Counted from the first letter of the stretch, positions 15,041 through 58,200 are shown. The stretch is 64,000 nucleotides of DNA from Stenotrophomonas maltophilia (GCA_002387845.1 DGLB01000074.1:52081-116080), one strand, 5' to 3'. Notes: generated by a model from the sequence alone, not told the origin. Program-made: numbers and translations.

Positions 15041-15745
15041 ATGATGGGGGCGGTTCCAAAGGATGCCTCCATGTTTCCGCGACTGCCCACTGTCACCAAG
15101 GCCCTGCTGATCGCCAACGCGGTGCTGTTCCTGCTGCAGCAGCCGTTCCTGCTCGGCTACGGCACGTTCGAGCCGTTCATGCTGCAGCCGCTGCGCAGCT
15201 TCGACCCGTTCTCGCCCGGCGGTAACTTCCAGCCCTGGCAGTTGCTGACCTACGGGTTCCTGCACGGCAACCTGATGCACCTGCTGTTCAACATGCTGGC
15301 GCTCTTCATGTTCGGTTCGCCGCTGGAACAGACCTGGGGCGAGAAGCGCTTTCTGATTTTCTACCTGGTCTGCGTGGCGGGCGCCGGCCTGTGTCAGCTG
15401 GCGGTCGGCGCGATGATGGTCGACCCGGCTCCGGTGCTGGGTGCCTCGGGGGGTGTGTTTGGTCTGTTGTTGGCGTACGGCATGCTGTTCCCGAACCAGC
15501 GGGTGATGCTGCTGTTCCCGCCGATTCCGATGAAGGCGCGCACCTTCGTGATCGTGATCGGCCTGACCGAACTGGTGTTTGGCGCGACCAGCTGGCAGCC
15601 GGGCATCGCGCATTTCGCGCATCTGGGCGGCATGCTGTTCGGCTGGCTGCTGATCCGTTACTGGCGCGGGCAGCCGCCGTTCACGCGCCGACCGCCGGGC
15701 GGCGGGCCGCCGAAGCGGCCGAACCATCTGCGCAGCGTCAAGTGA
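15041..15745 (+). CDS. Rhomboid-family intramembrane serine protease
   Basis: GFLHGNLMHLLFNMLALFMFG, GASGGVFGLLLAY (catalytic Ser), AHFAHLGGMLFGWL (catalytic His). The start may be the downstream Met at 15071. Confidence 0.8.
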   Translation: MMGAVPKDASMFPRLPTVTKALLIANAVLFLLQQPFLLGYGTFEPFMLQPLRSFDPFSPGGNFQPWQLLTYGFLHGNLMHLLFNMLALFMFGSPLEQTWGEKRFLIFYLVCVAGAGLCQLAVGAMMVDPAPVLGASGGVFGLLLAYGMLFPNQRVMLLFPPIPMKARTFVIVIGLTELVFGATSWQPGIAHFAHLGGMLFGWLLIRYWRGQPPFTRRPPGGGPPKRPNHLRSVK

Positions 15746-44494: not shown

Positions 44495-44542
44495 TGCAAC
44501 GCCACGCCCTGCGTGGCTGGAATCGTCCGGAATCGCTATATT

Positions 44543-46513
44543 GCCGGCATGAAGAAACGAGTTCCGGGCGCGAAGCGCCCGCTCAAGGTGGTATCCACCC
44601 TGCTGCTGGCCCTGGCCAGCAGCTCGGCCATGGCTCTGGGCCTGGGCGACATCCGCGTGCTGTCCAAGCCCGGCCAGCCGCTGCTGGCTGAAATTCCGAT
44701 CATTTCCGCCGACCCGTCCGAGCTGGAGAACCTGCGCGTGGCGCTGGCGTCGCCGGTCACCTTTGCCCGGGTCGGCCTGGACCGGCCCACCGGTCTGGTC
44801 AGCGAACTGCAGTTCGAACTTACCCGCAACACCCAGGGCCGCGCCGTGGTCCGGGTCAGCAGCCAGGCCCCGGTCACCACGCCGTCGCTGAACTTCTTGA
44901 TTGAGGCCGACTGGGGGCAGGGACGCCTGGTGCGCGAGTACTCCGCGCTGGTGGATGCCCCCGACAGTGCGGTGGCCGTCGCCGAGCCGGAAATCGTGGC
45001 CCCGGCGGGGGCGATGTCCAATGCCATCGTGCGCGAACCCGAACCGGCGCCGCCGGTGGCCGAGCCACAGGTCGCCGAATCGCAGCCGGCCGAAGCCACC
45101 CCGTCGCGTACCACGCCGGTACCGGCCCGCAACGCGGCACCGGCACGCGCGCCGGCACCGGCGCGACCTGCGCCCGCGCCGGTCGCCGCTGCCGATGGCA
45201 GCATCACCGTGCGTCGCGGCCAGACCCTGTCCGAAATCGCGGCCGGTGTCGCCCGCGAGCGTGGGCTCAGCCGCGACCAGGCCATGATCGCGCTGCTGCG
45301 CGCCAATCCCGAAGCGTTCATTCGTGGCAACGTGAACCTGCTCAAGCAGGGCGCGGTGCTGCGTACCGCCGATGCCGCCTCGGCACCGCCCGTGGATGCG
45401 GCCGAAGCGGCGGCCATGGTGCGCGAGCACACCGCACAGTGGCGCCAGGCCCGTTCGGCCATCCCACAGCCGGCGGCCACGGGTGTGGCCAACGCGCCAG
45501 CCAGCACCCCGGCCAACGCAGCCGGCGCAGCACCGGCTGCGGCACCGGCAAGCGCAGGCGGGCGTCTGGAAATCGCCCCCGCCGTCGCGGCCACCGACCA
45601 TAACGCAGGGACAATCACCGGCACCGCCGCCGGCAGTGAGGGTGACATGCTGGGCAACGAACAACTGCAGCAGGCCAAGGAAGACGTGGCCACCCGCGAT
45701 GCGGAAATCCAGGAGCTGCGCGGCCGCGTGGCCGAGCTGGAGAAACTGCAGAAGCAGCAGGAAGCGCTGATCAGCATGAAGGACAGTGACCTCGCCGCGG
45801 CCCAGCAGCGCCTGGCGGACGCCCCGGCGGCCCGCGAGGGCGGCGGTGGAGGCTGGTACTGGCTGGGGCTGGGCGTGCTGCTGGTGGTGGTGGCCGGCTG
45901 GGCGCTGGCGCGTCGTCGCAAGCCCTCACCGCTGCCGCCGCTGCGCCGCGATGGTTTCGATGCCGCCTCACTGGCCGCTGCCGTACCGGCAGCCGGCTAC
46001 GTCGATGAGCTGGCCACGCAGGAACGCGCGGACCAGGAGCAGGCCGACCAGGACGCCGAGCTGGCCTACGATTCGGCCGAATACGACAGCACCGCCGATC
46101 AGGTGGCCGCCGAAGTGGCCCGTCGCGAACCGGTGTTCGCGCTGGAGCCGCAGCCCGGGCAGGGCGACAGCGTGGCAGACGCGCAGGATCATGACCATGT
46201 GGTGGTCCCGGCGCATGCCTGGAATGCGGCCGCGCAACCCTCCTACCGGGGCGTTTTCGAGTTCCCCGAGGAACCGGTCGCGCCTGTCGTGGTGCAGGCC
46301 CCGGTCGAACCGACCCCGGTTGCGCCGGCCAGCGAGCCGGTGGCCGCTGCGGAACCGCTGGGCACGCCGGGCCGCGAGCGGCTGGAGCTGGCCATCGCCT
46401 ATCTCGACCTGGGTGATGCCGACACCGCACGCGCGCTGCTGCAGGAAGTGGCCGCCGCCGGCGACATCCACAGCCAGATCCAGGCACGCGAGCTGTTGGC
46501 CCGCCTGCCGTGA
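44543..46513 (+). CDS. fimV: FimV/HubP-family peptidoglycan-binding pilus/polar scaffold protein (LysM + long acidic/Ala-Pro region + C-terminal TPR-like motif)
   Basis: Signal peptide. LysM-like ITVRRGQTLSEIAAGV. TM segment WYWLGLGVLLVVVAGWALA. Conserved C-terminal LELAIAYLDLGDADTARALLQEV. asd-fimV-truA synteny. Confidence 0.8.
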   Translation, partial: AGMKKRVPGAKRPLKVVSTLLLALASSSAMALGLGDIRVLSKPGQPLLAEIPIISADPSELENLRVALASPVTFARVGLDRPTGLVSELQFELTRNTQGRAVVRVSSQAPVTTPSLNFLIEADWGQGRLVREYSALVDAPDSAVAVAEPEIVAPAGAMSNAIVREPEPAPPVAEPQVAESQPAEATPSRTTPVPARNAAPARAPAPARPAPAPVAAADGSITVRRGQTLSEIAAGVARERGLSRDQAMIALLRANPEAFIRGNVNLLKQGAVLRTADAASAPPVDAAEAAAMVREHTAQWRQARSAIPQPAATGVANAPASTPANAAGAAPAAAPASAGGRLEIAPAVAATDHNAGTITGTAAGSEGDMLGNEQLQQAKEDVATRDAEIQELRGRVAELEKLQKQQEALISMKDSDLAAAQQRLADAPAAREGGGGGWYWLGLGVLLVVVAGWALARRRKPSPLPPLRRDGFDAASLAAAVPAAGYVDELATQERADQEQADQDAELAYDSAEYDSTADQVAAEVARREPVFALEPQPGQGDSVADAQDHDHVVVPAHAWNAAAQPSYRGVFEFPEEPVAPVVVQAPVEPTPVAPASEPVAAAEPLGTPGRERLELAIAYLDLGDADTARALLQEVAAAGDIHSQIQARELLARLP

Positions 46514-47978: not shown

Positions 47979-48002
47979 GTAGAGCCGGGCTCTGCCCGGC
48001 TG
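47979..48002. repeat. SMAG REP palindrome (GTAGAGCCGGGCTCTGCCCGGCTG)
   Basis: Read directly from the sequence; immediately downstream of trpF. Confidence 0.8.
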
Positions 48003-48159: not shown

Positions 48160-48840
48160 ATGGCGGAATTTCTCAATGTCGCGCTGACATTCCCCACGTT
48201 GCCTTACAGCATCGTGTTGGCATTTGCCATGGTCTATTGGCTGCTGGCTGCCTGTGGCGTGGTCGACGACGGCTTTGCCACCGACGGTATCGACCTGGGC
48301 GGCGGCGAGGAGGGTCTGCACGGCATCTCCGGCATGTTCTCGCGCCTGGGCCTGGGCGGCGCACCGGTGATGCTGGTGATCGCGCTGCTGGCCTTCTTCG
48401 GCTGGACCGGCACCTACCTCACCCATCTGTTCCTGCTGCAGCCGCTGCCGGTCCCGCTGCGCTGGGCGGCTGGCAGTGCCGTGGCACTGCTGGCGCTGGT
48501 GCCGGCGGTACCGGTCACCGCGTTGATCCTGCGCCCGGTCCGGCGCCTGCTGCTGCGTCTGCGCGCGGTCCCACAGACGTCACTGCTCGGGCGCATCGGC
48601 GTGGTCGCGTCGCCGCAGGTCACCGCCAGCTCCGGCTACGCCACCGTTGACGACGGCGGAGCCGGGCTGATTCTGCAGGTCCGCCTGCCCGAAGGGCACA
48701 CCTTGCCACGCGGGTCACGGGTCGTGCTGATCGACTACGTGGCCGAACACAACCATTACCGGGTCGCTGGCGAAGACAGCCACCCTGCGCTTTCGTTCCA
48801 AGACAGCCTGATTGCGGGCGACAAGGAGATCCATCGATGA
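48160..48840 (+). CDS. YqiJ/DUF1449-like inner-membrane protein with C-terminal NfeD-type OB-fold domain (flotillin partner)
   Basis: RBS AAGGAAG 7 nt upstream. Membrane helices, then a beta-rich C-terminal segment (GRIGVVASPQVTASSGYATVDDGGAGLILQVRLPEG...GSRVVLIDYV) typical of NfeD short forms. The stop overlaps the flotillin start. Confidence 0.65.
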   Translation: MAEFLNVALTFPTLPYSIVLAFAMVYWLLAACGVVDDGFATDGIDLGGGEEGLHGISGMFSRLGLGGAPVMLVIALLAFFGWTGTYLTHLFLLQPLPVPLRWAAGSAVALLALVPAVPVTALILRPVRRLLLRLRAVPQTSLLGRIGVVASPQVTASSGYATVDDGGAGLILQVRLPEGHTLPRGSRVVLIDYVAEHNHYRVAGEDSHPALSFQDSLIAGDKEIHR

Positions 48841-50855: not shown

Positions 50856-50876
50856 GCGGGGCAGAGCCCGCTCTAC
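50856..50876. repeat. SMAG-like palindrome (minus orientation: GTAGAGCGGGCTCTGCCCCGC) downstream of the flotillin gene
   Basis: Read directly from the sequence. Confidence 0.6.
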
Positions 50877-50929
50877 ATTTCCACCGGCCGGTACCTCCGG
50901 CCGGTGTACCGTGAGCCGGAAGGAAGCTG

Positions 50930-53900
50930 ATGTCTGATACCGACCCCCGTCCCGACCCGTCGTCGGCGGAAGCCACTACCACCGTCGATCAGGCGGTTGC
51001 CCAGGGCGGAGCCTATGAAGTCCTGCGTCGTCGCCTGGGCGAGCAGGGCACGCGCCTGCGCGGTTTGGCCGATGCGCTCAACCGCCAGCGTCTGGTGGAA
51101 TTCGGGGACAGCCGGCTGGAGGTCATTGGCCGCTTCCGCATCCGCAGCGAAAACAACTGTGTAGGCCGGGACATCGTGCAGGTCGGACCGGACCTGCTGC
51201 TGTTCGGCTACAACGTCTACCTGGGGCTGAAGACCCAGACCCGGGTCGAGGACGTATTCGGCCTGTACCGGCTGGTGCAGTCGGGCGAGGGCTACGACGT
51301 GGTGCCGGTCGATGCCAAGGGCAGCTTCCTGGCCCAGGCCGGCTTCGTGCATGACTTCAGTGAGCTCTACGCCTACTACAAGCATGCGCGCCTGCTGCAG
51401 CTGATCAAGGTCGGTGACAAGCTGCTGGCGTCGTTCCAGATCGGCGAGCGCAGCAGTGACGTACGTGTGTTCCGCTGGGCGGTCTCGCGCGAGGGCGAGC
51501 TGACCTATCTGGATGCGCGCGGCGAGCGTGACATCGCGCTGCCGCCGCCGTTCGATTTTGAGTGGACCCGTGCCACCCGCGACATGGCGGTCAGCGGGCG
51601 TCATTCACATCTGAATATTCTGGACACCCTGTTCGTCGAGACCACCGGTGGCGATCTCACCATCAAGGTCGAGAACAACACCGAAAGCGGGCAGGGCATC
51701 TACAGCGAGCCGGTGGACGACAGCACCCAGTCGCTGGACGACGCCCAGTTCGATTTCGTCCGAGTCGGCTCATTGGTGCTGCTGAAGGTGCTGCCGTACC
51801 GCGAAACGGTATGGCGTGGCTTGATCTACAACACGTTGACCGGCGCGATCGTGCGCAATGACGCCATCGTGCAGGCCTGCGTGCAGCTGCCGGAAGACCA
51901 CGGCATCATCTTCCCCGGTGGCTATTACCTGCAGAGCGGCGAGCACAAAGCCTTCGACGCTTCGATGCAGGGCATGCAGTTCAAACGCGCGATCCGCTCG
52001 CCCAATGGCGAGGACGTGCTGTACATCTTCTATGAGCGCGAAGGTGGGCGCTCGGCGCTGTTCGTCTACAACACCATCCAGCGCGTGCTGCAGAACCCGG
52101 TGTTCGGCCACGGCTATGCCTTCATGCACGACGGGCGCATGGTGCTGTTCCACGCCGAAGGCACCGAGCCGACCCGCATCCACCCGATGCAGGTCTGGCA
52201 GACCCCGTTCAGCAGCGACGAATTTGCCGCCAGCCGGCCACCCGGCAACACCTTCATGGGCCGCATCGGCAACGCCGAGCTGGTTCGCGGCATTTCCAAC
52301 CTGTTCGACCTCGCCCGGACCATCGAAGGCCAGGACGTTTCGGTGCAGCGCTACCAGCGCCTGGTGCAGGATACCCGGCGCATGTTCGACGCCCACCACT
52401 GGCTCGACGATGCCAGCTGTGACGGCGCGGCCGGCCTGCTGCGCGAGATCAGCGCCACCGGCGAGTCGGTGCTGGACGAGTACGAAAAGGTCCAGAGCAT
52501 CCGCCAGCAGTCCGCCCAGGCCATGGCCCAGGCGCAGTCCAGCCAGAAGGCCCTGCTGGCGCGGTTGCAGCCGGAGAACTGGACCGGGGTGCAGGCCTTT
52601 GTCGAGGCGCTCAACGCGATTTCCACCCAGCGCGGTCATCTGCTGACCATCCGCGACTATCGTTACATCGATACGGATGTGATCGACGCGATGACCACCG
52701 CGTTGCAGGAAGCGCACGACCGCGTCGGTGCTGCCACCGGCCAGTTCCTCGCCGACGAGCGCGCACTGGCTCCGCTGGGCGAGCGCCTGCAGGCGCTCGA
52801 TGAAGCCGCGCAGCAGGCGGAAAGCGCGCGCGTGCTGGATGAACAGCTGGCCGGAATGCGCGGCATGGCCGCCGACCTGGACATGCTGTCCGCGCTCATG
52901 GCCGGGCTGAAAGTGGACGATGCCACCGCGCGTACCCGCGTAGTGGAAGCCATTTCCGCCGTTTACGCGCGCCTCAACCAGAGCCGGGTGCGTGCCGAGC
53001 AGCGACGCCGCACGCTGGGTTCCGCCGAGGCGGTGGCGCAGTTCGCCGCCCAGTTCGCGCTGTTCTCGCAGTCCATCACCAGTGCACTGGGCATGGCCAC
53101 CGACCCCGAGCGGGCGGATGAACAGATGTCGCGCCTGCTGGTGCAGCTGGAAGAACTGGAAAGCCAGTTCGGCGAGCACGAGCAGTTTCTGGGTGACATC
53201 CTGGCCAAGCGCGAAGAGCTGATCGAAGCCTTCGAGACCCACAAGCAGGCGCTGCTGGATGAACGCCAGCGTAAGGCGCGCTCGGTGCTCGATGCGGCCA
53301 CCCGCATCCTGGATGGCCTGGCCAAACGTACCGAGCGCTTTGCCAGCGCCGACGAGCTCAACGCGTTCTTCGCCGGCGACCCGCTGGTGCTCAAGCTGCG
53401 CGAGTTGGCCGAGCGGCTGCGTGAGCTGCGCGACAGCGTCAAGGCGGACGACGTCGAGGCGCGCCTGAAGGGCGTACGCGATCAGGCGGTGCGTGCGCTG
53501 CGCGACCGCAGCGATCTGTTCGAAGCGGGCGGCAACGTGGTGCGGCTGGGCCCGCGCCATCGCTTCAGCGTCAATACCCAGGCGCTGGACTTGACCCTGC
53601 TGCCACGCGGCGACGAGCTCGCCATCCACCTGACCGGCACCGACTTCCTGGAAGCGCTGCACGATCCGGAGCTGGCCGAGCTGAAGGCCTATTGGCAGTT
53701 GGGACTGGATTCGGAATCGGCGCAGCTGTATCGCGCCGAATACCTGGCCGGCAGCCTGCTGCTGGCCGCGATGGAAGCACGCGATGGTCTCGATCTGGCG
53801 GCTCTGCAGCATGCCGCTGCCGAGCCGGATGCGCTGGAGAAGATCGTCCGTGACTTTGCCGCACCGCGCTACCGCGAAGGCTATGAACGTGGCATCCATG

Positions 53901-56320
53901 ACCACGACGCCAGTCTGATCCTGCACGCGCTGCTGCCATTGCAGCAGGCCGCCGGCACGCTGCAGCATGCGCCACGCGCACGCGCGCTGGCCCTGCTGTT
54001 CTGGGCCGCGCAGCAGCGCCGCGAAGACGTGGCGCAGTGGTCTGCGCGTCAGGCCGGGGCCGATGCCATCGCCCGCCTGTTTGGTTCCAGCGAAGGTCAG
54101 CAGGCCCTGCTGGCCGAGATGACCACCGCATTGGATGCGTTCGTGCAGGAGCGCCAGCTGCCGTTCCAGACCGAAGATGCGCAGGCGTCGGCCGCCTATC
54201 TGGCTGCCGAACTCAGTGTCGGCGAGCCCGTTTTCAGCACCAGCCGCTACGCGCAGGCCCTGCTCGAAGCACTGACCCAGCATCTGCAGTCGGCCGGCCA
54301 GCGCGAAGCCTTCGACCGTGCCCTGCAACGCGAGCAGGACGGCCTTGCCGCGCGCTGGAAACTGGCGGGTCAATGGCTACGCGCACTGTGCCAGCTGCCG
54401 GCCTACGCCACGTACGCCGGCTACGCCGATGAGGCGGCAGCACTGCTGCTGGTGTCGCGTGCGCTGCGCACGCGTGGCAGCGAGGTCGCCCTGCAGGTAC
54501 AGGTGCAGGGGCTGCTGGGCGAGCACGCGCGCATCCAGCAGGGTCACCTCACCCTGTCGCTGGATGACTTCCTGGCACGCCTGCGCACCCACCTGCAGCA
54601 GTTCGTGCCGGCCTTCCATGCCTACCAGGGCGTGCGCCAGCGCATCATCGTGCGCGAGCGCGACGCCTTGCGCCTGTCAGAGTTCAAGGCCCGCCCGCTA
54701 TCCTCGTTCGTGCGCAACAAGCTGATCAACGACGTCTACCTGGGCGTGATCGGTGACAACCTGGCCAAGCAGATGGGCACGGTCGGCGAGAACAAACGCA
54801 GCGACCTGATGGGCCTGCTGATGATGATCTCGCCGCCGGGCTACGGCAAAACCACGTTGATGGAATACGTGGCGCACCGGCTGGGCCTGGTCTTCATGAA
54901 GATCAACGGCCCGGCGCTGGGCCACGAGGTGCGCTCGCTGGACCCGGCGCAGGCTCCCGATGCCACCTCGCGGCAGGAGCTGGAAAAGCTCAACCTGGCG
55001 CTGGAGATGGGCAACAACACCATGCTGTATGTCGACGACATCCAGCATACCCATCCCGAGTTCCTGCAGAAATTCATCTCGCTCTGCGACGGCACCCGCC
55101 GTATCGAGGGCGTGTGGCGCGGGCGCACCCGTACCTACGACATGCGCGGCAAGAAATTCTGCGTGGTGATGGCCGGCAACCCGTACACCGAGTCCGGCGA
55201 GGTGTTCAAGATTCCGGACATGCTCGCCAACCGCGCCGACATCTACAACCTGGGCGACGTGCTGGGTGGCATGGAAGAGGCCTTCACCCTGAGCTATATC
55301 GAAAACAGCCTGACCTCCAACGCGGTGCTGGCCCCGCTGGCGACGCGTGACATGGCGGATCTGTACCTGCTGGTCGACCGCGCGATGGGCAAGGAGGTCT
55401 CCACCAATGCGCTCAGCCACGCCTACAGCGGCGCCGAGATCAACGAGATCGTCGCGACCCTGCAACGCATGCTGCGCGTGCGTGACGTGGTCTACCGGGT
55501 CAACCAGCAATACATCGCCAGCGCCGCACAGGACGACCGCTACCGCACCGAGCCGCCGTTCCGGCTGCAGGGCAGCTACCGCAACATGAACAAACTGGCC
55601 GAGAAGATCTCGCCGGTGATGAACGAGGCCGAGCTGCAGCAGCTGGTCTCCGACCACTATCTCGGCGAAGCGCAGCTGCTGACCACCGGTGCTGAAGAGA
55701 ACCTGCTCAAGCTGGGCGAACTGCGTGGCGTCCTGGGCGAGGATGAGCTGCAGCGCTGGGCGCAGATCAAGCGCGACTTCCTGCGCAACAAGGCCATGGG
55801 GGCAGGCGATGCCGATGTCGGCGGTCGCGTGGTGGCGCAGCTGGCCGACATCGCCAGTGCGCTGCAGAGCAGTGCCGACGCCGCACCGCTGAATGCAGCG
55901 GACCCCGCACCGTGGCCCGCATTGCTTGCCGCATTGGAGCGCCTGGTTCCGGTGCCGGCACCGGCCACACCTGTGGTTGCGGCGGAGTTCGCTCCTGTCG
56001 ACACCGGCGTGCCGCACCCCCCACCGCTGCCGGCCGCCGAGCCGATTGCCCAAGGGTTGCAGGAAGGGCTGGCCCCGCTGCTGCAACTGCTGGGCCAGGC
56101 CAATGCGCAGCAGGCGCGCACCGGTGAAACCCTGGCCTTGCTGGCCAGCTGGGTGCGCGAACAGATGGAGCGCGGCCCGGCCGCACCGCCACGCCCGCGC
56201 GCACGCCGCGCCAGCACGCCGCAGGAGCGTGCGCTCGACGAGGCACTGATGCGTCACTTCTACGGTGAATCCACCCTGCCGCCGCGGTGGACCGGCGCTG
56301 CGGATGATGCGCCGGCATGA
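50930..56320 (+). CDS. Giant (1796 aa) uncharacterised protein: unknown N-terminal domains, extended central helical/coiled-coil region, C-terminal MoxR/AAA_5-like ATPase domain
   Basis: RBS GGAAG. Walker A ISPPGYGKTTLMEY, Walker B NTMLYVDDIQH, sensor-1-like VVMAGNPYTESGEVFKIPDMLANRADIY (compare MoxR ATQNP...LPEAQLDRF). Central A/L/E/Q/R-rich helical region. Stop overlaps the next start (ATGA). Confidence 0.7.
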   Translation: MSDTDPRPDPSSAEATTTVDQAVAQGGAYEVLRRRLGEQGTRLRGLADALNRQRLVEFGDSRLEVIGRFRIRSENNCVGRDIVQVGPDLLLFGYNVYLGLKTQTRVEDVFGLYRLVQSGEGYDVVPVDAKGSFLAQAGFVHDFSELYAYYKHARLLQLIKVGDKLLASFQIGERSSDVRVFRWAVSREGELTYLDARGERDIALPPPFDFEWTRATRDMAVSGRHSHLNILDTLFVETTGGDLTIKVENNTESGQGIYSEPVDDSTQSLDDAQFDFVRVGSLVLLKVLPYRETVWRGLIYNTLTGAIVRNDAIVQACVQLPEDHGIIFPGGYYLQSGEHKAFDASMQGMQFKRAIRSPNGEDVLYIFYEREGGRSALFVYNTIQRVLQNPVFGHGYAFMHDGRMVLFHAEGTEPTRIHPMQVWQTPFSSDEFAASRPPGNTFMGRIGNAELVRGISNLFDLARTIEGQDVSVQRYQRLVQDTRRMFDAHHWLDDASCDGAAGLLREISATGESVLDEYEKVQSIRQQSAQAMAQAQSSQKALLARLQPENWTGVQAFVEALNAISTQRGHLLTIRDYRYIDTDVIDAMTTALQEAHDRVGAATGQFLADERALAPLGERLQALDEAAQQAESARVLDEQLAGMRGMAADLDMLSALMAGLKVDDATARTRVVEAISAVYARLNQSRVRAEQRRRTLGSAEAVAQFAAQFALFSQSITSALGMATDPERADEQMSRLLVQLEELESQFGEHEQFLGDILAKREELIEAFETHKQALLDERQRKARSVLDAATRILDGLAKRTERFASADELNAFFAGDPLVLKLRELAERLRELRDSVKADDVEARLKGVRDQAVRALRDRSDLFEAGGNVVRLGPRHRFSVNTQALDLTLLPRGDELAIHLTGTDFLEALHDPELAELKAYWQLGLDSESAQLYRAEYLAGSLLLAAMEARDGLDLAALQHAAAEPDALEKIVRDFAAPRYREGYERGIHDHDASLILHALLPLQQAAGTLQHAPRARALALLFWAAQQRREDVAQWSARQAGADAIARLFGSSEGQQALLAEMTTALDAFVQERQLPFQTEDAQASAAYLAAELSVGEPVFSTSRYAQALLEALTQHLQSAGQREAFDRALQREQDGLAARWKLAGQWLRALCQLPAYATYAGYADEAAALLLVSRALRTRGSEVALQVQVQGLLGEHARIQQGHLTLSLDDFLARLRTHLQQFVPAFHAYQGVRQRIIVRERDALRLSEFKARPLSSFVRNKLINDVYLGVIGDNLAKQMGTVGENKRSDLMGLLMMISPPGYGKTTLMEYVAHRLGLVFMKINGPALGHEVRSLDPAQAPDATSRQELEKLNLALEMGNNTMLYVDDIQHTHPEFLQKFISLCDGTRRIEGVWRGRTRTYDMRGKKFCVVMAGNPYTESGEVFKIPDMLANRADIYNLGDVLGGMEEAFTLSYIENSLTSNAVLAPLATRDMADLYLLVDRAMGKEVSTNALSHAYSGAEINEIVATLQRMLRVRDVVYRVNQQYIASAAQDDRYRTEPPFRLQGSYRNMNKLAEKISPVMNEAELQQLVSDHYLGEAQLLTTGAEENLLKLGELRGVLGEDELQRWAQIKRDFLRNKAMGAGDADVGGRVVAQLADIASALQSSADAAPLNAADPAPWPALLAALERLVPVPAPATPVVAAEFAPVDTGVPHPPPLPAAEPIAQGLQEGLAPLLQLLGQANAQQARTGETLALLASWVREQMERGPAAPPRPRARRASTPQERALDEALMRHFYGESTLPPRWTGAADDAPA

Positions 56321-58173: not shown

Positions 58174-58200
58174 GGGGTGACACGCATGGCGTGTCACCCG
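58174..58200. repeat. REP-type palindrome GGGGGTGACACGCATGGCGTGTCACCC between convergent telA-like and LysR genes
   Basis: Read directly from the sequence; a likely bidirectional terminator. Confidence 0.75.

Follow-up and report, generated by a model that had tools for sequence, protein, structure and literature searches.

The closest described relative of the system analysed here is the 'biofilm-associated cluster' bacABCDEF of Pseudomonas aeruginosa, in which PA3728 (PA14_16190) has been renamed BacE (PMC10948618). The genes bacA-F are co-transcribed and have a putative sigma-54 promoter, and mutation of bacA raises BacB-F 6-13 fold (PMC10948618). Osmotic shock induces PA3731, and without it biofilm formation, swarming, rhamnolipids and virulence are impaired (PMC2587700). 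PA3728-PA3732 are induced upon infection by two virulent phages (PMC12041424), and PA3728 is among the genes that are recurrently mutated in cystic fibrosis isolates (PMC8190622). Operons of this class and the architecture of their ATPase were already described in 2024 by Ravi et al., who reported an N-terminal coiled coil in the giant ATPase family as well as 'abbreviated operons' without the PspA dyad, proposed a function in sub-membrane dynamics and favoured a chaperone-type role in building complexes linked to the membrane (PMC11237479). Here we report on a stretch of 64,000 nucleotides (nt) from Stenotrophomonas maltophilia (GCA_002387845.1 DGLB01000074.1:52081-116080; called the window), in which the open reading frame (ORF) 50930..56320 on the plus strand codes for a giant ATPase of 1796 amino acids (aa) plus stop, the third gene of a five-gene operon. 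As judged from its sequence, this protein is the Stenotrophomonas-type orthologue of PA3728/BacE and belongs to the DUF3686-DUF7902-AAA family. We propose, with a probability of roughly 55%, that it uses ATP to remodel scaffold assemblies beneath the membrane in envelope stress and membrane maintenance.

The window giant and its P. aeruginosa homologue P0398 (1746 aa) are 65% identical over 1746 aa with 1% gaps and carry the same Pfam domains. The P0398 locus has the order DUF2170, PspA, a 213 aa protein, a 688 aa protein, the giant and a PLD gene, and behind these yaeQ, recJ and a gene for an M4 peptidase. P0398 is taken to be PA3728 because the sizes of the 213 and 688 aa neighbours fit PA3730 (23 kDa) and PA3729 (76 kDa) of the bac cluster (PMC2587700). 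As in the bac operon, the giant of the window is preceded by a gene for a YqiJ-like protein and one for a flotillin-like protein. The bac operon additionally has DUF2170 (BacA) and PspA (BacB) at its head and the PLD gene (BacF) at its end, none of which is part of the window operon, whereas in the window the giant is followed by a 234 aa helical protein and TelA. The window operon thus has the same three core genes as the operons of Ravi et al. and fits their 'abbreviated' form (PMC11237479). Neither the word TelA nor the word rhomboid occurs in that paper, and a literature search for TelA together with flotillin and AAA, or for SPFH together with MoxR, returned nothing relevant. What is added here to the 2024 description is the clade of the motor, the predicted fold and fixed length of the rod, the wide extent and strict order of the synteny, and the TelA variant.

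The protein is identical to the giant annotated on NCBI contig GCA_031996005.1 and has thousands of full-length homologues, the nearest named relatives being from Stenotrophomonas, which marks the window as chromosomal DNA of Stenotrophomonas type. Pfam assigns DUF3686 (PF12458) to its N-terminal part (E 2.8e-193, with a coverage of 447 of the 448 profile positions), DUF7902 (PF25472) to aa 612-694 within the helical rod (E 1.2e-22) and AAA_5 to aa 1297-1424 (E 7e-7), the latter with 29.7 bits, which is above the cut-off of 22 and also above the 25.8 bits reached by the generic AAA profile. Only aa ~695-1290 match no Pfam model, even at E<=1 when isolated regions are scanned. The original prediction, made from the sequence alone, had called about 1250 N-terminal residues unassigned and without obvious motif and the architecture unusual, and both statements have to be revised. 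A search with the first 700 aa against 1.84 billion cluster representatives matched 886 clusters at 50% identity (287 at E<=1e-30), and complete family members are 1600-2060 aa long. Distant members (28-35% identity), including one with 28% identity in the N-terminal region and its relatives, have the same Pfam set. The family signatures [IVL]SPPGYGKT and Fx[IVL]PDML[AVS]NR are both found in the window giant. Single clusters at 90% identity comprise 3222 sequences from P. aeruginosa and 1128 from Stenotrophomonas, respectively. On the basis of these comparisons, domain order and length of the giant are the norm of a large and widespread family (PMC11237479) and not peculiar to one genome. Psychrobacter members (P0374-P0387) are 2040-2069 aa long, ~300 aa above the rest; they presumably contain an insertion or an extra domain, as no more than 61% of the query is covered by their best BLAST segment.

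Scanning one genome per species with the signature patterns revealed relatives of the giant in at least 587 species, belonging to the Gamma-, Beta- and Zetaproteobacteria, Myxococcota, Actinomycetota, Bacteroidota, Verrucomicrobiota, Planctomycetota and Acidobacteriota; one Clostridiaceae genome also carries a relative. Members from archaea and eukaryotes are mentioned by Pfam and by Ravi et al. (PMC11237479). To survey the neighbourhoods, hidden Markov models of the window neighbours were compared with all ORFs of 82 loci. A flotillin-like gene is present in 75 and a YqiJ-like gene in 67 of these loci, and wherever they are found the order is YqiJ-like, flotillin-like, giant on one strand. 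Five of the seven loci that lack a flotillin match have less than 200 nt of upstream sequence, and the other two have ~1.5 kb, which is too short for the whole gene. Further neighbours are PspA/IM30 (21 loci), DUF2170/YjfI (17), TelA (8), PLD-family proteins (6) and rhomboids (4), which are all membrane-associated kinds. PLD-family (HKD) or rhomboid genes lie directly 3′ of the giant in several Proteobacteria (e.g., L021:15372-16070 and L023:15214-15780). The TelA linkage is limited to Xanthomonadales and Vibrio ostreicida, and the TelA-extended operon is a minor, lineage-restricted variant. Of the neighbour clusters present in at least 14 of the 82 loci, PspA and DUF2170 are those annotated; the remainder consists of ORFs which, judged by position, overlap the flotillin gene off-frame or on the opposite strand. 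Clusters found in fewer than 14 loci were annotated in part. Since the giant is nearly always encoded beside a flotillin-like membrane scaffold, we consider membrane-stress handling, and not DNA repair, its most likely field of action.

In some genomes additional genes are located between the flotillin-like gene and the giant. Judged by their sequences, most of these look like unrelated insertions, for example transposase-like ORFs, a toxin-antitoxin pair and lipoproteins. There are two exceptions. In a metagenome-assembled genome of Actinoplanes the giant gene itself is broken into an N-terminal ORF of 294 aa (L020:9989-10873) and a remainder of 1275 aa; the split reflects a frameshift, a pseudogene or an error in the assembly. 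In two Pseudomonas loci an ORF of 80 aa was found at this position; one (L023:9604-9843) reaches 23.8 bits with Pfam TerB at a cut-off of 24.4, the other (L040:9590-9832) is with 17.3 bits likewise below the threshold. The TerB-like ORF hints at a second link to Ter-type proteins besides TelA.

The database names of the family are 'DNA repair ATPase', 'AAA family ATPase' and 'MoxR-like ATPase' (NCBI, UniRef), and the Pfam description of DUF3686 reads 'ATPase involved in DNA repair'. The original prediction had stated that confident full-length homology to an annotated family of known function, such as a repair ATPase, would speak against it: the homology to a family of this name is there, but we found no evidence from experiment or gene context behind the name. 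In favour of a repair ATPase one can cite, in addition to the name, weak RuvB matches around Walker A (E 0.003-0.008) and the position of recJ three genes downstream in P. aeruginosa. The RuvB match is, however, confined to ~45 residues round the P-loop and scores 18 bits against a cut-off of 282; a sequence search of the full protein against PDB chains returned only P-loop-level matches to RuvB and p97. Pfam scans detected no nuclease, helicase or DNA-binding domain in the giant, a repair gene is not conserved near it in the 82 loci, and our literature search found no paper on DUF3686. The fold search with the predicted model led to MoxR proteins and not to RuvB. A DNA repair ATPase is thus extremely improbable, and the propagated name is very probably misleading. 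It is carried by thousands of entries, among them a P. aeruginosa core gene that is phage-induced and mutated in cystic fibrosis isolates (PMC12041424, PMC8190622).

The accessory genes also bear on the possibility that the operon is an anti-phage or inter-bacterial conflict system, which would sense an attack on the envelope and set off a response at the membrane, with TelA and PLD proteins as effectors. PLD-family proteins include nucleases, and the sub-threshold TerB-like ORF lies inside the module in two Pseudomonas loci. TelA and Ter proteins are tied to phage and colicin resistance in work cited in PMC7824862, and the P. aeruginosa genes respond to two virulent phages (PMC12041424). Yet such an induction would also be expected of a general envelope-stress operon. 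None of the five operon proteins has a match in PADLOC-DB 2.0 (E<=0.01), and the giant family occurs in 0 of 50,697 phage records and in 13 of 72,556 plasmid records, for the most part those of very large replicons. The family behaves as a core gene, and this together with the 65% identity between Pseudomonas and Stenotrophomonas is untypical of defence genes. We therefore regard a conflict system as unlikely.

The motor of the giant is a single MoxR-class AAA+ module which, according to motifs and alignment, has the full set of conserved catalytic positions. All motifs quoted in the original prediction are present: Walker A at aa 1302, Walker B at aa 1366 and the sensor segment VVMAGNPYTESGEVFKIPDMLANRADIY, which begins at aa 1412 and contains N1417-P1418. 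Its assignment to the MoxR/AAA_5 clade also stands, with AAA_5 above the cut-off and NorQ and CbbQ, both MoxR proteins, as the nearest solved folds of the modelled motor; only the start of the module has to be moved, as the fold begins at ~aa 1290 and not at ~1250. A hairpin is predicted ahead of the sensor-1 strand (local E241-246/E249-254 in the C-terminal model), and we take this hairpin, N1417-P1418 and R1435 to be the pre-sensor-1 hairpin, sensor-1 and the arginine finger of MoxR proteins. R1551, located within the invariant LQGSYRNMN, is a candidate sensor-2 arginine, as suggested by its position and invariance. K1307, D1369-D1370, N1417, P1418, R1435 and R1551 are invariant in the family alignment, and the AAA+ region is among the best-conserved parts of the giant, with long runs of invariant columns. 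The Walker B motif has DD instead of the canonical hhhhDE, and D1369-D1370 are invariant in both family alignments.

The MoxR proteins CbbQ, NorQ and RavA have ~250-500 aa and work with a separate protein that carries a von Willebrand factor A (VWA) domain with a metal ion-dependent adhesion site (MIDAS), namely CbbO, NorD and ViaA, respectively. The window giant differs from them in having 1290 aa fused in cis, no VWA partner and the DD in Walker B. A cryptic VWA/MIDAS domain was considered and rejected: the giant has no DxSxS motif, neither of its two models has an alternating beta/alpha stretch of the VWA type, and none of the five operon proteins matches a VWA family in Pfam (the neighbours not even at E<=10). 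This agrees with the earlier statement that no VWA/MIDAS motif is evident in the operon. Likewise, no VWA partner was found among the annotated neighbour clusters common to at least 14 of the 82 loci. The family has a MoxR-type motor without VWA adaptor, in which the fused propeller and rod apparently take over the adaptor role.

The absence of the adaptor also has to be weighed where a client-directed chaperone is considered. Here, the motor, by analogy akin to NorQ, CbbQ and RavA, would serve the assembly or quality control of one membrane complex, which it matures or repairs, and the flotillin/YqiJ scaffold would corral this client, much as HflK/C corrals the substrates of FtsH, instead of being the substrate. 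The pairing of an SPFH scaffold with an AAA+ protein is an established theme (HflK/C-FtsH, prohibitin with the m-AAA protease), and the nearest folds, NorQ and CbbQ, are client-specific activases. In some genomes a rhomboid protease or PLD hydrolase encoded 3′ of the giant is in line with such a function, and a chaperone-like role is the one that Ravi et al. favour (PMC11237479). Across phyla, however, no client gene is conserved beside the module, only the YqiJ-like and the flotillin-like gene, and client-specific MoxR systems use the VWA adaptor that is missing here. We consider this possibility, which is the main alternative to our proposal, rather unlikely.

The 1290 residues in front of the motor and the C-terminal tail were analysed with AlphaFold models based on a 68-sequence alignment (27-91% identity). 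Residues 1-1200 and 1151-1796 were modelled as monomers, with a mean predicted local distance difference test (pLDDT) of 83 and 79, respectively, and secondary structure was assigned to the models with DSSP. The composition is beta-rich up to ~430 and rich in Ala, Leu, Glu, Gln and Arg at 500-1200, and in the model aa 60-430 are beta-rich and aa 440-1175 nearly all helical; composition and model thus agree with the beta-rich N-terminus and the A/L/E/Q/R-rich central part noted before. Approximately 28 strands are predicted at aa 64-424, and Foldseek retrieved 6- and 7-bladed propellers for this domain (the WDR domain of DCAF1 with E 1.5e-5, Elp1, prolyl oligopeptidase and Vps18), which suggests a beta-propeller fold for the DUF3686 region. 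Foldseek also returned giant proteins built of propeller plus helices (a nuclear-pore component and the intraflagellar transport complex A), with TM-scores of ~0.1; this is a loose likeness only. Profiles made from the family alignment (aa 55-440, 440-870 and 870-1290) found nothing significant in the PDB. The original prediction had envisaged one long coiled coil in the centre. In the model, the central helices are instead broken into pieces of 15-58 residues that match tandem spectrin and plakin repeats in structure comparisons. In all 26 genomes compared, which belong to several phyla, the rod (aa 440-870, 52247-53539) has 427-433 residues, and in 19 its length is 431 (1293 nt), at an identity of only 25-58%. 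This near-fixed length points to a defined structure rather than a flexible linker, as if the length of the rod itself mattered.

Behind the rod, a second helical domain is predicted, with helices shorter than those of the rod. It contains the motif EGYE-G-[IV]-H-D-x-D-A, which looks like a metal or ligand site; G988, H990, D991, D993 and R1018 are invariant in the 68 sequences, and the motif is also kept in the distant set. The domain with this motif has no Pfam or PDB sequence match. In the linker to the motor, the stretch FKARPLSSFVRNKLIN...GDNLAKQ is highly conserved. The tail, in contrast to these parts, is not conserved, since the family consensus is undefined there, and the pLDDT is below 50 in several stretches. 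A hydrophobic-segment analysis revealed no membrane segment in the giant.

Could the giant be a passive structural tether or part of a sub-membrane skeleton, with rod and propeller linking flotillin patches to some other structure and the ATPase acting only as a nucleotide-gated switch or being inactive? A spectrin-like rod of near-fixed length across phyla, as for a spacer or ruler, would fit such a role, as would the replacement of the catalytic Glu in Walker B by Asp. Against this, the other catalytic positions (the Walker A Lys, the sensor-1 Asn, the arginine finger and the candidate sensor-2 Arg) are invariant in ~eight phyla, and the AAA+ region belongs to the best-conserved stretches. 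Because of this invariance and conservation a working nucleotide cycle can be argued for, and a purely passive tether is very unlikely. The 'tether or lever' on a flotillin platform that had been suggested earlier would be a reasonable picture.

In the remodelling that we propose, the AAA+ modules would assemble into a ring like those of NorQ and CbbQ. The arms of propeller and rod might replace the VWA adaptor, which is a separate protein in ordinary MoxR systems, and bind the flotillin/YqiJ assembly from the cytoplasmic side. Hydrolysis of ATP would then assemble, reshape or strip helical sub-membrane polymers or their clients, and this remodelling would be part of the envelope-stress and membrane-maintenance response. 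Candidate substrates are the flotillin scaffold, PspA where it is present, and TelA in the window operon. The proposal draws on the family and its architecture, the predicted folds, the invariant catalytic residues, the synteny, the membrane-related accessory genes, the bac literature and the topology. Several points weigh against it. The ring is assumed by analogy, and the contacts of the giant with flotillin, YqiJ, PspA or TelA are ones that we infer. The family-wide DD in Walker B could indicate a slow switch instead of a processive remodeller, and the H-D-x-D motif could mark another activity. The products of genes 1 and 2 of the window are below the Pfam thresholds, so that their identities are deduced via the sequences of orthologues. 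PspA and DUF2170 genes are absent from the window operon, which has trpF upstream, and from the remainder of the 64 kb. Finally, the phenotypes reported for P. aeruginosa are those of bacA and bacB mutants, and we found no paper testing BacE itself.

A more specific version of this proposal, which we offer as tentative and consider possible but doubtful, makes the giant the energy-consuming partner of bacterial flotillins: a ring of six motors of ~1.2 MDa with spectrin-like arms, tipped by propellers and docked on flotillin/YqiJ, that would remodel flotillin/YqiJ, PspA and TelA. If true, it would be a bacterial functional counterpart of Vps4/ESCRT-III or FtsH/HflK/C, with a motor of an unrelated AAA+ clade and no VWA adaptor. 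HflK/C-FtsH may be likened to the window operon in that both couple an SPFH membrane scaffold genetically with an AAA+ machine. FtsH, however, is a membrane-anchored AAA+ protease of the classical clade, whereas the window giant is soluble, of the MoxR class and without peptidase domain. The likeness to ESCRT-III/Vps4 would lie in PspA, an ESCRT-III relative, which shares the operon with the ATPase in 21 of the 82 loci; the analogy of a polymer with its disassembly ATPase was raised by Ravi et al. for other PspA-linked AAA+ proteins (PMC11237479). The roles of flotillin and NfeD/YqiJ proteins are still debated, and a conserved giant ATPase encoded behind them offers an experimental handle.

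Features of the giant ATPase and of its operon in the window. Residues refer to the respective protein, positions to the window; domains assigned from models are predictions.
Feature	Residues (aa)	Position (nt)	Strand	Basis and remarks
Gene 1, putative YqiJ/NfeD-like small membrane protein	226 aa	48160..48840	+	Called start; ORF opens at 48142
Gene 2, putative band-7/SPFH flotillin-like scaffold protein	672 aa	48837..50855	+	Orthology
Giant, N-terminal long helix	13-58	50966..51103	+	DSSP of model
Giant, DUF3686	43-490	51056..52399	+	Pfam; predicted beta-propeller core ~aa 60-430
Giant, helical rod, spectrin-repeat-like	440-860	52247..53509	+	Model; includes DUF7902 (nt 52763-53011)
Giant, disordered loop	861-883		+	Model
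Giant, three-stranded sheet and second helical domain	888-910 and 935-1175	53582..54454	+	Model
Giant, motif EGYE-G-[IV]-H-D-x-D-A	984-994	53879-53911	+	Invariant across phyla
Giant, linker to motor	1180-1290	54467..54799	+	Beta-hairpin and long helices (DSSP of model)
Giant, AAA+ alpha/beta core, MoxR class	~1290-1445	54800..55264	+	Pfam, model
Giant, Walker A PPGYGKTT	1302-1309	54833-54856	+	Sequence; K1307
Giant, Walker B LYVDDIQH	1366-1373	55025-55048	+	Sequence; D1369-D1370
Giant, sensor-1 and arginine finger	N1417 and R1435	55163-55246	+	Sequence, alignment
Giant, helical lid and C-terminal helical extension	1446-1650	55265..55879	+	Alignment, model
Giant, Pro/Ala-rich tail	1651-1796	55880..56317	+	Mostly disordered, two predicted helices
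Gene 4, helical protein	234 aa	56317..57021	+	Called gene; ATGA overlap with stop of giant
Gene 5, TelA-family protein	366 aa	57063..58163	+	PF05816, E 1.2e-68, aa 50-361
GC-rich inverted repeat after telA		58174..58199	.	GGGGGTGACACGC ATGG CGTGTCACCC, read from sequence

The five genes form a unit on the plus strand between trpF and a LysR gene, which is divergent from trpB-trpA and convergent to the operon. Three hydrophobic segments are present in the gene 1 product, whose C-terminus is soluble. It has no Pfam match itself, and two of ten orthologues match Pfam YqiJ_N (L044, and L070 below the cut-off). The stop codon of gene 1 overlaps the start codon of gene 2 (ATGA at 48837-48840). The gene 2 product shares 64% identity with the neighbour of PA3728 in P. 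aeruginosa and has one hydrophobic segment (aa 1-34); the positive residues following this segment suggest that the bulk of the protein lies in the cytoplasm, as the giant must. It shows a weak NCBIfam FloT match (E 0.0015) and no Pfam match, while its orthologues in L002 and L004 match Pfam Band_7. A comparison of the flotillin-family profile with the PDB gave only a marginal match to the QmcA coiled coil (E 0.01). Gene 2 and the giant gene are separated by a spacer of 74 nt (50856-50929) that contains two short inverted repeats (~50858-50873 and ~50884-50907) and, downstream of these and before the giant gene, the ribosome-binding site GGAAGGAAG. The repeats could influence how much scaffold is made relative to ATPase.

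Gene 4 is translationally coupled to the giant gene, and its all-helical product has no Pfam match. Orthologues are found in seven of the eight TelA-bearing loci listed, all from Xanthomonadales, and not in the Vibrio locus (L013). It may be a truncated TelA-like paralogue, as hhalign aligned its LLPAWxQ to IPSWKRQ of the TelA profile, which is suggestive; the hhalign probability is only 20%, and BLASTP found nothing. An iterated hidden Markov model that linked the two was probably contaminated by overlapping mis-called ORFs and was not relied on. The gene 5 product was assigned to the TelA family with 232 bits at a cut-off of 30. The inverted repeat behind telA, which faces the convergent LysR gene, likely marks the end of the operon. 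It has no T-run and was missed by the scan for consensus terminators; sigma-70 and terminator scans are uninformative in this DNA with 66% GC. GC-rich inverted repeats are located at both ends of the cassette, at 47982-48002 after trpF and at 58174-58199 after telA. Reading the 196 nt upstream of gene 1 revealed no convincing sigma-54 -24/-12 element, and a sigma-54 pattern scan gave matches not above chance, those listed reaching to ~40 kb and thus ending short of the region upstream of the operon.

Two genes located farther upstream were also noted. At 33 kb upstream of the operon there is a separate gene for a rhomboid-family protein (15041-15745, plus strand; Pfam Rhomboid, E 1e-33), with no evidence of a connection between the two. 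Upstream of truA-trpF, a FimV-like protein of 666 aa is encoded (44513-46513, plus strand; FimV_N, E 2e-36), which belongs to the ordinary context.

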